Of a stretch of 61,503 nt of DNA, positions 5,751-54,850 are shown piece after piece; the stretch's first letter is position 1; each line of letters begins with the position of its first letter. The notes under the pieces are model-generated. The model saw only the letters and a program-made list of their open reading frames with translations, did not search any database and was not told where the DNA came from. The DNA comes from Candidatus Vogelbacteria bacterium RIFOXYD1_FULL_46_19. Its GTDB lineage: Bacteria > Patescibacteriota > Minisyncoccia > Phycocordibacterales > XYD1-FULL-46-19. Location of the stretch: assembly GCA_001824825.1 (NCBI GenBank), contig MHTK01000004.1, positions 1-61,503 on the forward strand, given 5' to 3'. Both the position numbers and the translations under genes were made by a program.

Positions 5751-5777
5751 CAATAAATTTATATATAATTTAATAAT

Positions 5778-5850
5778 GCCCTGTTAGCTCAGTTGGCCCG
5801 GCCCGCAACGCCTGAGCAAGCTCTAGACTAGCGATGGCGGGCGAGTAGAA
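5778..5850 (+). pseudogene. tRNA-Lys 5' fragment with a palindromic insert at the D loop
   Basis: GCCCTGTTAGCTCAGTTGG is identical to 6015-6033, followed by a 48-bp GC-rich insert and GTAGA; no 3' half. Confidence 0.85.
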
Positions 5851-5900
5851 ATTTAAACAAAAATATGATGACATAATTTGACAAATTTTAGTTTTATAAT

Positions 5901-5956
5901 GCCCTGTTAGCTCAGTTGGCCCGCCTGCCATTGCTACGCTTCAGGCGTTAGTGGGC
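5901..5956 (+). pseudogene. Second tRNA-Lys 5' fragment with the related palindrome in the opposite orientation
   Basis: Same 19-nt tRNA 5' end, then CCCGCCTGCCATTGCTACGCTTCAGGCGTTAGTGGGC. Confidence 0.85.
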
Positions 5957-6014
5957 ACAAGATAGTTAACAACTTAGTGATCAATGATACAATAGTGAAA
6001 ATTTAATCTTATAT

Positions 6015-6120: not shown

Positions 6121-6426
6121 GTGCCCCGTGAGCAAGCCAACTGCTTGGCTTGCGGTCAGGATTCGAACACCGGAGTTATGTTTGGTAAGCTTGCCAAACA
6201 AACGAGGTGGTGCCCAGACCAAAGTGAGTGGCGACGAGCTTTGAGTCGCGGGAGAATCCTGCCCCTAACTGCTTTGGTCGTGTGCAGGATTCGAAGAGGC
6301 TAAACATATCGCAGTGATCCGCCTTTGGCGGAGAAACGAGATGTGAAGCCTGTACCGTTCCCGCCCGCCTGCCATCGCCTGCTGGCTTAGGCGCTGGCGG
6401 GCAGGTAGGGGGAGAATCCTGCACCA
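6121..6426 (+). repeat. Two tandem tRNA-anchored structured mini-elements (class B then class A) tailored to tRNA-Lys
   Basis: CAGGATTCGAA...GAGAATCCTG arms repeated twice around conserved cores. Confidence 0.85.
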
Positions 6427-6512
6427 ACTGCCGGACGACTTTAAGACTTAGTAAGCAAAACAATAGCCCAACTTTTTAAAATATGGTAGCATCTAGAATG
6501 TTAACAACTAAA

Positions 6513-6594
6513 GCCCGGGTGGCGGAATTGGTATACGCGCACGACTTAAAATCGTGTCTCGAAAGGGATGCGGGTTCGATTCCCGCCCCGGGCA
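6513..6594 (+). tRNA. tRNA-Leu(TAA)
   Basis: GCCCGGG/CCCGGGC acceptor, CACGA-CTTAAAA-TCGTG, long variable arm. Confidence 0.95.
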
Positions 6595-6612
6595 CCTGTT
6601 ATTTGAAAGACC

Positions 6613-6696
6613 GCTGGAGTGGTGAAATTGGTAGACACGCAGCGTTCAGAGCGCTGTAGGGGCAACCCTATGGAGGTTCAAATCCTCTCTCCAGCA
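6613..6696 (+). tRNA. tRNA-Leu(CAG)
   Basis: GCTGGAG/CTCCAGC acceptor, CAGCG-TTCAGAG-CGCTG, long variable arm. Confidence 0.95.
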
Positions 6697-6723
6697 CACG
6701 TTTCGCTGTAAGCAAAAGATAGA

Positions 6724-6850
6724 GTGGTGGAGAAGCGACTGAACTGCTTCCGTCGCGTGAGAATTTGAAAGACTTTTCGTTGCCAAGCACCTGGTAAAGA
6801 TGACTTGGTCGAAAAGTACCAGCCCCCGTAGGGGGAAAGTCCTCTCTCCC
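6724..6850 (+). repeat. tRNA-anchored mini-element (class C) tailored to tRNA-Leu(CAG)
   Basis: GTGGTGGAGA..GAGAATTTGAA antisense arm, ACTTTTCG..CGAAAAGT stem, CCCCC-GTA-GGGGG, AAGTCCTCTCTCC sense arm. Confidence 0.8.
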
Positions 6851-6894
6851 GAAGGAAATAAACAAAGCGTAGGTTTTCAACACAAAAAAAATAT

Positions 6895-6976
6895 GCCGGG
6901 GTGGCGAAATTGGTAGACGCACTAGCCTTAGGAGCTAGCGGAGCAATCCATGGAGGTTCAAATCCTCTCCCCGGCA
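6895..6976 (+). tRNA. tRNA-Leu(TAG)
   Basis: GCCGGGG/CCCCGGC acceptor, CTAGC-CTTAGGA-GCTAG, long variable arm. Confidence 0.95.
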
Positions 6977-6992
6977 CAAAATTGAAAATTTT

Positions 6993-7126
6993 GAGCCGGG
7001 AACAAGTAAACTGCTTTACTTGTGGGAGGGGATTTGAAGAGGTTGATCATGTTGCAGTGAGCGGAGCGAAACGAGACGCGAAACCTGTACAGATTCCGTA
7101 GGAATCGAGTCCTCTCCCCGGCACCA
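6993..7126 (+). repeat. tRNA-anchored mini-element (class A) tailored to tRNA-Leu(TAG)
   Basis: GGAGGGGATTTGAA antisense arm, AGGTT..AACCT-GTAC, GATTCC-GTA-GGAATC, sense copy TCCTCTCCCCGGCACCA. Confidence 0.85.
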
Positions 7127-7191
7127 GTAGTAACTTGTTTGGCACCCTCCACTCCCCTTTTTAAGCCTTAAATCGAGGCGGATTTTTATCG

Positions 7192-24912: not shown

Positions 24913-25023
24913 GTGGGGGATAGAGGACTCGAAACTTACAGTTTCAGTACAGGTTGTCGATATTTTCATACCAAAGGTCTCTGAAAATATCTGACTAACC
25001 TTTTCAAGTCCTCTATCTGCCAC
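24912..25023 (-). repeat. tRNA-anchored mini-element (class A) tailored to tRNA-Val
   Basis: Minus strand: GATAGAGGACTTGAA, AGGTT..AACCT-GTAC, GAAACT-GTA-AGTTTC, AGTCCTCTATCCCCCAC. Confidence 0.85.
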
Positions 25024-28007: not shown

Positions 28008-28137
28008 GACCCCTACGGGGAATCTTTCCCTACGGGAACGGTACAGGCTTCACATCTCGTTTCGCTACGCTCACTGCGATATGTTCAGCCTCTTCGATTC
28101 CCCGACGTGAGCAAAGCAGTTTGCTCACTTAGGGTCA
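28008..28137 (-). repeat. tRNA-anchored mini-element (class A) tailored to tRNA-Glu
   Basis: Minus strand: TGACCCTA[AACTGCTT hairpin]GGGAATCGAA, GAGGCTGAACATATCGCAGTG..CCTGTACCG, TTCCC-GTA-GGGAA, GATTCCCCGTAGGGGTC. Confidence 0.85.
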
Positions 28138-28907: not shown

Positions 28908-28995
28908 GGAGAGGTGGCTCGAGTGGTCTAAGGCACCGGTTTCGAAAACCGGCATACGGGCAACCGTATCGAGGGTTCAAATCCCTCCCTCTCCG
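28908..28995 (+). tRNA. tRNA-Ser(CGA)
   Basis: GGAGAGG/CCTCTCC acceptor, CCGGT-TTCGAAA-ACCGG, long variable arm, discriminator G. Confidence 0.95.
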
Positions 28996-29112
28996 CATCT
29001 AACAGCTAGCACGAAGAACCTCGTTTTAGCTTTACAAAACCACATCACTACGATGTGGTTTTGTAATCTTGAGATGTTATCTTTTAAGATAACATTGTGT
29101 TATACTCAAGAA

Positions 29113-40195: not shown

Positions 40196-40472
40196 TGCCC
40201 TCGGCAGGAATCTCCCCCAACGGGGGCTGGTATTTTTCGTCTCGCTCGCTTGGTAAAGCTCACTCTCATCGAAAAACCATTCGATTCCTGACGCAAAACA
40301 AGCCCTAAAGCCATCCAGCACGGAGTAGGCCAGTTGTTTTACCTAACTCGGCAGGAATCTCCTTCGACTCAAAATTTGGCCGTTGCCAAATTTTGGTCTA
40401 GGCACCCCCTCGCGCCAAAATTCTACTGAATTTTGACTTCGTGCGCTCCGGCGTTCGATTCCTGCCGAGGGC
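40196..40472 (-). repeat. Two tandem tRNA-anchored mini-elements (class B at 40347-40472, class C at 40196-40292) tailored to tRNA-Arg
   Basis: CAGGAATCGAA ... AGATTCCTGCCGAG arms twice; cores CCGGAGCGCACGAAGTC.. and TTTTTCG..CGAAAAA-TACCAG-CCCCC-GTT-GGGGG. Confidence 0.85.
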
Positions 40473-40939: not shown

Positions 40940-41233
40940 TTATAGCACACCCTCCAAGTAGGCTGAAATATCATCCTCCCGGCTGGTTTTATTGGGTTTT
41001 TCATAACCACAGTCTAAACAACGGTGAAGTACTACAAAACTCTCTCCGGCCTTTGATAGAGCTTCCGGGGCCATGAGACCCCCACAGACGGCCGCTCGGT
41101 CTCCCGGATTGACATCAACATGCTTGCTCCACAGGCAGTGGGGGCAATGGTTGGTATAGCCATTACCCTCGACCAGCTCCCTGCAATGCTCGCAAGTAAA
41201 ATCTTCTTGATGTTTGATGAAATTTTGGGCCAT
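40940..41233 (-). CDS. RNHCP-domain protein
   Basis: FTCEHC, YTNHCPHCLWSKHVD..PGDRAAVCGGLM, HRCLDCG. Confidence 0.9.
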   Translation of the reverse strand: MAQNFIKHQEDFTCEHCRELVEGNGYTNHCPHCLWSKHVDVNPGDRAAVCGGLMAPEALSKAGESFVVLHRCLDCGYEKPNKTSREDDISAYLEGVL

Positions 41234-54547: not shown

Positions 54548-54697
54548 GATAAACCCTCCCTGCCCGACTATTCCGTTAAATTACCCAGTGGAATAGATTG
54601 TCTAATCCTAGAGTAGCATAAGGAGCTTGAGTGTAAATACTTTAAAAGTCGAGTGGTGGACAACTTTACAGTAGAATTCCTCGTGCTAACTATTAGA

Positions 54698-54850
54698 TGC
54701 GGAGGATGAGGGATTTGATTCCTACAGAATCTGTTCAGGTTGACGATATTTTTCTTCTCTAATTCGAAAAATATCAGGCAACCTTTTCTAATCCCTCCTT
54801 CCGCTTGGCGGAACCGCCCCACAGGCGGCCTCCGCAAAAAAGCTTGCGGA
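54698..54850 (-). repeat. Class-A mini-element tailored to a tRNA-Ser but with no tRNA beside it
   Basis: Minus strand: TCCGCA-hairpin-TGCGGAGG[hairpin]GGAGGGATTAGAA, AGGTTG..CAACCT, GATTCT-GTA-GGAATC, AAATCCCTCATCCTCCGCA. Confidence 0.8.

Follow-up and report, generated by a model that had tools for sequence, protein, structure and literature searches.

The stretch of DNA under study, called the window throughout (all 61,503 nucleotides of contig MHTK01000004.1 that were analysed, from Candidatus Vogelbacteria bacterium RIFOXYD1_FULL_46_19, a member of the candidate phyla radiation (CPR) or Patescibacteria), carries 11 tRNA genes; behind most of these, in the same orientation, stand one or two units that each measure about 110-180 nt. 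In two classes of these units, A and C, the core ends in a small hairpin with a GTA triloop, here termed P4, directly before a second copy of the tRNA 3' part. The position of P4 within the unit is identical in 34/34 class A/C copies from the window and from other genomes, its loop and the linker in front of it are conserved, and its stems covary. Our tentative view is that P4, kept by selection, forms the end or junction hairpin of a small non-coding insertion cassette working as a single strand.

Read along the tRNA-sense strand, the tRNA 3' end (X1) is usually followed by a bidirectional terminator, whose palindrome extends back into the tRNA, and then by an anti-acceptor segment, a hairpin P1 (base AGCRAG..CTYGC, loop about AACTGCTT), an anti-T segment whose final base is the complement of T54 (..ATTCGAA), the core, and finally X2, a sense copy of the tRNA that runs from T-loop position 54-57 to the 3' end. 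Three types of core are of concern here, namely A1 (AGGYT..GCAGTGA-hairpin-GAAACGAGAYGYGAARCCT), A2 (AGGTT..GATATTTTC..GAAAATATC..AACCT) and C (ACTTTTCG..CGAAAAGT), and only in classes A and C does the core end in (T)G(T/A)AC, 1-3 nt and a GTA-loop hairpin of 5-6 bp, which is P4, before X2 begins. The classes B, D and E have other cores that are distinct from A and C; at least five unrelated cores are found within one common arm layout. Classes A and C are related, and the class C interior GAGTGAGC..GCGAGCGAGACG, as present in the close relative L036 and at the tRNA-Arg locus of the window, resembles the A1 motif GCAGTGAGC..GCGAAACGAGACG. Class E is a further core that was seen in the trailers of tRNA-Phe (L006) and tRNA-Val(TAC) (L017); it ends in ..GGAAAATTTTTGTCGGAWCAAAAATTTATCTGTGRCC directly before the sense arm and has no GTA hairpin.

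In the window, P4 lies 1-3 nt behind a GTAC, GAAC or ATAC linker that closes a long stem (AGGTT..AACCT or ACTTTTCG..CGAAAAGT), the copy of the neighbouring tRNA 3' part begins 0-1 nt downstream, and no T-run follows P4. A preliminary description of the window had quoted six such hairpins with GTA or GTT loops, each with its linker and a long stem in front; all six exist at the coordinates listed below with both of these companions, and the tRNA-Lys unit holds a seventh copy, the loop of which is divided between G and TA by a 42-nt GC-rich palindrome. The hairpins and the parts of the tRNA-Leu units next to them are as follows.

6358-6412, plus strand: split P4 of the class A1 unit behind tRNA-Lys, with TTCCC 6358-6362, G 6363, insert 6364-6405, TA 6406-6407 and GGGGG 6408-6412; two T.G pairs.
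6772-6779 and 6810-6817, plus strand: P3 strands ACTTTTCG and CGAAAAGT of the class C unit behind tRNA-Leu(CAG).
6823-6835, plus strand: P4 CCCCC-GTA-GGGGG of the same class C unit; linker GTAC 6816-6819.
6995-7038, plus strand: antisense arm of the tRNA-Leu(TAG) unit, with the anti-acceptor GCCGGG 6995-7000 and the P1 hairpin 7002-7023 (loop AACTGCTT).
7024-7038, plus strand: anti-T segment GGGAGGGGATTTGAA of the tRNA-Leu(TAG) unit, ending at the complement of T54.
7087-7090, plus strand: linker GTAC of the tRNA-Leu(TAG) unit, between P3 (AGGTT 7040-7044 / AACCT 7082-7086) and P4.
7092-7106, plus strand: P4 GATTCC-GTA-GGAATC of the class A1 unit behind tRNA-Leu(TAG), loop 7098-7100; its terminal ATC takes the place of T54-C56.
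7107-7126, plus strand: sense arm X2 GAGTCCTCTCCCCGGCACCA, the spare tRNA-Leu(TAG) 3' part from G57.
24931-24945, minus strand: P4 GAAACT-GTA-AGTTTC of the class A2 unit behind tRNA-Val; linker GTAC 24950-24947.
28026-28038, minus strand: P4 TTCCC-GTA-GGGAA of the class A1 unit behind tRNA-Glu; linker GTAC 28044-28041; the 3' strand GGGAA has an alternative partner TTCCC in the following sense arm.
40214-40226, minus strand: P4 CCCCC-GTT-GGGGG at tRNA-Arg(CCT), in a class C unit that is stacked on a preceding class B unit; linker ATAC 40233-40230.
54717-54731, minus strand: P4 GATTCT-GTA-GGAATC of an orphan class A2 unit that lacks a preceding tRNA; linker GAAC 54736-54733; closing pair T.G.

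Further copies were collected with a pattern for the A1 core, GCAGTGA-N(5-25)-GAAACGAGAYGYGAA, which contains neither the linker nor the hairpin and was run against one genome per species of GTDB and against metagenomes of the Joint Genome Institute (JGI). It returned 21 true units behind tRNA genes, 20 of them distinct (L029 repeats L011), with hosts among Parcubacteria, Nomurabacteria, Paceibacteria, Saccharibacteria and other Patescibacteria; the other matches to the pattern were chance occurrences in GC-rich genomes, and no A1 core was found in viral contigs. All 20 distinct A1 units carry P4 at the same place, with the loop GTA in 18, GTAA in one and a G..TA split by an insert in one. From the same loci came two more class C units (L004b and L012c), an A1 variant (L012b) and, in L027, a second tandem module; the close relative L036 added four copies, which brings the total to 34 (7 in the window and 27 elsewhere). 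Their loops are GTA in 28, GTT in 2, GTAA in 1 and split G^TA in 3, and both GTT loops belong to class C units (the window Arg unit and the Leu(CAG) unit of L036). The triloop is conserved in additional copies, the first of the two checks that the preliminary description had set. In L027 (4316-4380, minus strand), two consecutive modules of GTACC, a 6-bp GTA hairpin and AAGTCCTCT.. stand behind a single A1 core, with the stems GAATCT and GATCCT.

The stems come in at least 14 different sequences (about 15 recurring alleles), of 5 bp (TTCCC, TTCCT, TTCAT, TCCAT, TCCCT, CCCAT, CTCCT, CCCCC) or 6 bp (GATTCC, GATTCT, GAATCT, GATCCT, GAAACT, GAACTT). To link the 5-bp alleles with one another, at least eight compensated double changes are required, and the only intermediate seen is the Lys unit, where the window, with two T.G pairs, has TTCCC..GGGGG as opposed to CCCCC..GGGGG in L036. 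The linker occurs as (T)GTAC, GAAC, ATAC, GCAC or GTGC, with C as its fourth base, and TGTAC is nearly invariant in the 20 A1 copies. Loop, stem length, pyrimidine-purine (Y-R) closing pair and linker remain constant across distant CPR lineages. The stem had been described as variable in sequence, which holds for the number of alleles and does not hold in the sense of free variation: the pair that closes the GTA loop is always Y-R (T-A in 19/28, C-G in 8/28, T.G in 1/28), the 5' strand is rich in pyrimidines, and class C always uses one stem, CCCCC/GGGGG (5/5).

Covariation was evaluated in an alignment of 28 P4 copies (named A2, which does not refer to class A2). The five inner pairs are Watson-Crick in 138/140 cells, the exceptions being one G.T and one misaligned cell, and all five show two-sided changes. 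The covariation score amounts to 0.74, as compared to 0.24 +/- 0.03 for shuffles, of which 0/500 reach 0.74, and it falls to 0.05-0.21 when the partner strand is slid by 1-3 columns, so that the expected covariation of the stems beyond chance was indeed found. In the 20 full A1 units, RNAalifold predicts P1, a helix of anti-T with X2, an outer and inner P3, and P4; 24/35 of the predicted pairs are preserved via double changes, to which P1, the arms, P3 and P4 each contribute, and TGTAC, GCAGTGAG and CGAAACGAGA are invariant or nearly so. From these consensus helices it follows that, on the tRNA-sense strand, P3, P4 and the helix of antisense and sense arms meet in a three-way junction, in which GTAC(N1-2) is the only long single-stranded joiner.

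The base of P4 is closely tied to the first tRNA-derived bases. With 5-bp stems, G57 is paired, across a G.A mismatch, to a C located two bases ahead of the stem, and alignment column 9 forms C-G or U-G with G57 in 19/28 copies. In the 6-bp stems, the 3' strand ends with (T/A)TC, which corresponds to T54-C56, and R57 follows directly. P4 thus clamps with its base either G57 or T54-C56, and so the right-hand cassette junction. Stems of the 6-bp type are confined to tRNAs with a T-loop RA(G/A/C)T (Leu, Ser, Val), the 5-bp type stands behind GAWT-type loops in 13/14 cases, and the loci L022 and L023 combine the same P3 with different P4 types. The unit as a whole folds better than shuffles (z = -3.4 as DNA, -3.0 as RNA), and the tRNA-sense strand folds better than its complement in 17/22 units (p = 0.001). 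A pseudoknot between loop and linker (GUA with UAC) was rejected on geometry, as both connecting loops would have zero length, and a reading of the purine-rich 3' strand as Shine-Dalgarno sequence or CsrA site was discarded, as no start codon follows. A count of G.U versus A.C pairs based on alifold (23 vs 3) was dropped as a test for the RNA strand, being confounded by invariant pairs and by the choice of structure.

The comparison with L036, in which RbfA is 95% identical, shows what happens to the cassettes over short evolutionary distances. At the tRNA-Leu(TAG) site, L036 has an A2-type core with the P4 GAACTT-GTA-AAGTTC, and the window has an A1 core with GATTCC-GTA-GGAATC. The T-loop of the tRNA reads TTCGAGT in L036, whereas the tRNA and the antisense arm of the window have AAAT and the window X2 has GAGT. 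As the window X2 thereby keeps the GAGT of the L036 tRNA, X2 is the former, displaced 3' end of the tRNA, and X1 would have arrived with the cassette. The different core class and P4 at the same tRNA, together with the ancestral T-loop in X2, further show that cassettes are replaced and not slowly mutated. At the tRNA-Lys site, L036 contains one C-like unit with the P4 TTCAT-GTA-ATGAA, behind which lies a relic CCCCC-G[insert]TA-GGGGG-X2, while the window has a class B and then the A1 unit, and the homology between both restarts exactly after the loop G of the split P4. The class C units of Leu(CAG) are orthologous, with about 90% identity, the same stem and the loop GTA in the window versus GTT in L036, and their P3 interior has been swapped for a sequence like that of the Arg unit.

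P4 travels with such replacements. One scaffold and P4 allele (ACATGTACCG-TCCAT-GTA-ATGGA) was found at five loci, behind Lys, Pro, Arg and Pro tRNAs according to ARAGORN and at the fifth locus L020, so that it serves at least three different tRNA species, and the arms match the local sequence in each case. Only 3/14 five-bp stems match the local T-stem. P4 is inherited together with the scaffold and not copied again from each target. As it is inherited, as both strands are still complementary in every allele, and as loop, length, closing type and linker are fixed, selection acts on the folded structure with a sequence-specific loop. This agrees with the selection on structure plus a short loop that had been proposed at the outset, for which covariation and the constant loop speak; gradual compensatory evolution plays a smaller role than had been implied, as most of the differences between stems come from the swapping of whole cassettes between loci.

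The arms were compared over nucleotides 57-65 of 18 units, where X1 and X2 differ at 20/162 positions and the antisense arm shows 15 differences to X1 and 23 to X2. X2 is often defective: in Val (CCTCT) it is unable to pair with the T-stem ACAGG, and in Leu(CAG) its acceptor part is degenerate. X1 alone yields intact tRNAs, and an intron or other intervening sequence of the tRNA is therefore excluded. In the anti-T arms of L020, L022 and L025, ATGAGAA or ACGAGAA stands instead of the T-loop complement ATTCGAA, and the T-stem complement is retained.

A number of rearrangements were noticed around the units. Where units are stacked, the sense arm of the first leads directly into the P1 loop and 3' half ((A)ACTGCTT..; window 6259-6275 and 6425-6432, L004 1385-1400), and the second unit is without terminator, anti-acceptor segment and P1 5' strand, which makes the P1 loop a recurrent breakpoint. 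In L018 (about 6195-6215, minus strand), the spacer AGTGAGCGTAGCGAGAC between tRNA-Asn and an A1 unit is a piece of another A1 core and looks like the relic of an earlier unit. The three tRNA-Leu genes are inverted as a block between L036 (3240-4115) and the window (6428-7137), with about 250 nt extra in L036, and the breakpoints adjoin X2 of the Lys unit and of the Leu(TAG) unit. At the orphan A2 unit, the sense arm and 23 nt of flank (54677-54723, minus strand) form an inverted repeat with the end and trailer of tRNA-Ser(CGA) (28972-29018, plus strand) at a distance of 25.7 kb; the segment between these repeats begins with a defence-like gene cluster, and only TCCGCA of an upstream tRNA copy remains at the orphan unit (54850). 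Between the tRNA-Gly and tRNA-Arg units (window 40940-41233, minus strand), a zinc-ribbon protein with an RNHCP domain (PF12647, E = 3e-26) and a glutaredoxin-like open reading frame are encoded.

The G^TA site is moreover a target in its own right, for a second element. This palindromic, GC-rich element of 40-50 nt (CCCGCCTGCCATYGCC..GGCGGGCAGG) sits exactly at G^TA, at the following places.

5777-5845, 5900-5960 and 6364-6405 of the window: G^TA element.
2834-2875 and 3173-3215 of L036: G^TA element.
184-225 of L012: G^TA element.

It is found in the P4 loop of two independent lineages, one being the window with L036 and the other L012, and also at GG^TA of the D-loop (GTTGG^TAGA) in two truncated 5' copies of tRNA-Lys that include the promoter (5797, 5920). 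As it lies in P4 loops and tRNA-Lys D-loops alike, something in these cells acts on G-T-A that is presented two bases before the 3' strand of a hairpin.

Since one scaffold recurs at many tRNAs, gives way to others in close relatives and leaves behind relic 3' ends, we infer that the unit is a small non-autonomous insertion or recombination cassette and P4 its right-end junction hairpin. Such a cassette would land in the T-loop region and bring a replacement 3' end (X1) together with the mirror copy, and the old 3' end (X2) would be displaced downstream. P4, with its Y-GTA-R loop and the linker, would then be the end structure read, in single-stranded nucleic acid, by a factor that acts in trans, and by way of P4 this factor would set or hold the right-hand junction; the GTA loop could accordingly be contacted by a protein, and cutting or joining could occur at the base of the hairpin. 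As regards the nucleic acid involved, the upstream terminators, the rarity of G.T pairs and the fast turnover favour a DNA form, whereas the conserved internal-loop motifs and the strand bias of the folding energy favour an RNA form.

Several observations weigh against this insertion cassette. The R57 junction is also present, without a GTA hairpin, in units of the classes B, D and E, and P4 can therefore not be a recognition element of the whole superfamily; it is not required for the architecture overall and is a class-specific module of A and C. The antisense arm is closer to X2 than to X1 in Glu, in L023 and in part of Val, which a simple model in which X1 and the mirror copy arrive together does not predict. 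Mismatches in the arms, when counted directly, comprise five G.T and three A.C, and show no clear strand asymmetry that would point to a single-stranded form. A Pfam analysis of ten open reading frames beside units gave no recombinase, transposase or nuclease domain and no match to Y1_Tnp. Contigs that encode an identical RbfA carry an identical array, and neither an empty site nor an excised circle nor a strain polymorphism was seen; DNA metagenome contigs at 85% likeness held only tRNAs of other organisms. Between the tRNA-Gly and tRNA-Arg units (window 40940-41233, minus strand), a zinc-ribbon protein with an RNHCP domain (PF12647, E = 3e-26) and a glutaredoxin-like open reading frame are encoded.

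As alternative to the insertion cassette, P4 could be a helix of a structured non-coding RNA that arises from read-through of the tRNA or from processing of its 3' trailer. The GUA loop and the GUAC junction would then make tertiary or protein contacts, the RNA would act on the 3' end of the tRNA, be it as sensor, as decoy, as processing signal or as ribozyme, and the turnover at the DNA level would be secondary. The covariation of all helices is in line with this proposal, as are the unpaired motifs GCAGUGAG .. CGAAAC and UGUAC, which resemble internal-loop motifs of RNA, the orientation of the units, which is always that of the tRNA, the better folding of the sense strand, the G.U intermediate stem of the Lys unit, and the units that follow a tRNA without terminator (L015, L018). 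However, a strong bidirectional intrinsic terminator precedes most first units and leaves no room for an own promoter, G.U is rare in P4 (1/140 inner-stem cells in 28 copies), at least five unrelated cores occur under the same arm layout, and the presence of different cores at orthologous sites of close relatives would be unusual for a functional partner RNA. In Rfam 15, only the tRNAs pass the gathering threshold and nothing covers the units at E <= 10, so that no RNA family match supports the proposal. The organism was absent from three metatranscriptomes of the same study, and a search for RNA runs of L004 gave none. A hammerhead reading of GCAGUGAG..CGAAAC was abandoned, as C3, U4, G5 and A6 are wrong when compared by eye with the hammerhead consensus. 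On balance we consider the non-coding RNA rather unlikely, although it is the most probable of the rivals.

A different objection is that P4 could be a palindrome without function, left behind as a by-product. It might stem from the process that copies the mirror arm, for example by fold-back or template switching at the palindromic T-loop TTCGAA, or it might be a decayed extra copy of the T-loop and T-stem 3' strand that is paired with its complement. The likeness of GTAC(N)GATTCC and GTACCGTTCCC to the T-arm G53-C63 (GTTCGATTCC) would fit, and the 3' strand has two possible partners, namely the 5' strand and the beginning of the sense arm, the sequence TTCCC-GTA-GGGAA-AGA-TTCCC being exact at the window Glu unit, L017 and L026. 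The stems are moreover perfect palindromes with almost no wobble pairs, and terminator-centred palindromes that extend back into the gene are common here. P4 is not re-templated from the local tRNA, however, as seen from the few matches to the T-stem and from TCCAT at five loci; both strands are therefore inherited and have nevertheless stayed complementary across at least 14 alleles, and loop, stem length, Y-R closing pair and linker do not change across distant CPR lineages. We regard this origin as improbable. The simplest objection, that the hairpins are chance structures or ordinary terminator stems, has practically nothing left in its favour. Six perfect 5-bp GTA triloops exist in the window on both strands, against 1.7 +/- 1.2 in 200 Markov simulations, and unrelated ones are indeed present at 2480, 27326 and elsewhere; but four of the six, and one more with a G.T closing pair, occupy the identical position in a unit, and the common position in every copy, the invariant loop, the covariation above all 500 shuffles and the absence of a T-run refute it.

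A more far-reaching variant of the insertion cassette would see in P4 and the G(T/A)AC linker the end-recognition and target-reading module of a self-retargeting cassette without a protein of its own, with the GTA loop as the recognised cut-and-join site. Linker and hairpin would position a single-strand nuclease or recombinase that acts in trans at C56|R57 of whichever tRNA gene, in parallel to the guide tetranucleotide and subterminal hairpin of IS200/IS605, and the arms would be copied from each new target. Such a role of the GTA loop would explain why the second palindromic element lands exactly at G^TA in P4 and in tRNA D-loops. The G(T/A)AC linker is complementary to the universal T-loop GTTC at 3-4/4 positions, with the junction just after GTTC. 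We think this variant has only a slim chance of being correct.

A search of the literature found no description of this cassette family, and gene-less structured cassettes that trail tRNA genes in CPR/Patescibacteria have apparently not been described. They trail a large share of the tRNA and tmRNA genes in a superphylum that accounts for much of bacterial diversity, and no matching RNA family or mobile element could be found for them. P4 is a sharply defined and testable feature of them by its constant loop, constant linker, covarying stem and junction position, and it could serve as a handle for the partner protein, for the decision between single-stranded DNA and RNA, and for the automatic annotation of class A/C units. 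Should it be true that a cassette copies its arms from each target on one scaffold, this would be a new way of programming the choice of a site.

Among known systems, the islands and prophages that use the T-loop of tRNA or tmRNA genes as attachment (att) site of a tyrosine integrase, and the remnants of these that have lost the integrase, have in common with the units that the insert rebuilds the tRNA 3' end, that the displaced end forms a direct repeat and that tandem stacking occurs; here, too, a direct repeat of the tRNA 3' part flanks the insert and the tRNA gene is restored. The units differ by their size of 110-180 nt without any gene, by the inverted copy of the target on a conserved folded scaffold, and by the use of one scaffold for many tRNAs. 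An integrase att site, with inverted half-sites around an overlap of 6-8 bp, is not supported, as the unit contains no integrase gene and as the GTA hairpin stands where a T-stem-like integrase half-site (the T-stem 5' strand) would be expected. With regard to the loop, Hirao and colleagues reportedly described DNA mini-hairpins with GNA triloops, such as d(GCGAAGC), which are said to be most stable with a C-G closing pair. P4 is similar to these d(cGNAg) hairpins in its G-N-A loop, Watson-Crick closing pair and compactness, but its closing pair is mostly T-A and two of its loops are GTT. Stability alone does not explain the fixed T of the loop.

The comparison with folded single-strand substrates bound by protein, which the preliminary description had drawn, is reasonable as such, but the two examples it chose do not hold on the defining points that were compared. 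The attC sites of integrons, which lie at the 3' end of gene cassettes and go together with IntI, are different from the units in that the latter have no R/L boxes, no extrahelical bases and no cassette open reading frame, form a perfect stem of 5-6 bp and follow tRNA genes. REP elements, with the related BIME and REPIN and the RAYT nucleases, carry GT[AG]G directly 5' of a palindrome and are dispersed over the genome as 20-40 bp elements, often in inverted pairs (PMC3479197, PMC3333891, PMC3733652). P4 likewise has a GTA-containing tetranucleotide 5' of a palindrome with a covarying stem, and REP are recognised as folded single-stranded DNA; the tetranucleotide of P4 is GTAC and not GT[AG]G, however, it stands 1-3 nt off the stem, the hairpin comprises only 13-15 nt, and P4 is never dispersed or found in inverted pairs, being one fixed module per tRNA-linked unit. 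In the IS91 family, with its HUH Y2 transposase and its oriIS and terIS ends, the target is 5'-GTTC (GTAC in about 1%) or CTTG, a subterminal palindrome lies by the terIS cleavage site, and the intermediates are single-stranded (PMC13181058). The GTTC target and the subterminal palindrome are all that is shared with IS91, as the order of tetranucleotide and then hairpin is the reverse of that in terIS, as IS91 makes no target duplication while a direct repeat is present here, and as the units, about ten times smaller, contain no HUH transposase gene and no open reading frame.

The ends of IS200/IS605 elements offer similarities as well. Y1 HUH transposases are said, in work by Barabas et al. 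from 2008, to act on folded single-stranded DNA at these ends. An overview of the IS200/IS605 ends and of the gene-less PATE derivatives is available (PMC6006769). Like these, the units have a short hairpin near the element end and a conserved tetranucleotide just 5' of the hairpin foot, and, as in IS200/IS605, they are strand-specific and their insertion adjoins a fixed tetranucleotide, in this case GTTC (G53-C56). Unlike in IS200/IS605 and PATE, the left part consists of P1 (AGCGAG..CTCGC, loop AACTGCTT) and the terminator palindrome, neither of which is like P4. IS200/IS605 elements insert 3' of a fixed tetra- or pentanucleotide and cause no target duplication, whereas a direct repeat of 17-23 nt (X1/X2) flanks the unit, an internal mirror copy of the target is present, the arms change with the target, and no TnpA or TnpB was found in the ten open reading frames beside units. 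Membership fails for REP, attC, IS200/IS605 and IS91 wherever it was tested, and the nearest mechanistic parallels to P4 are those element ends that are handled as folded single-stranded DNA, as in IS200/IS605, REP and the terIS of IS91.

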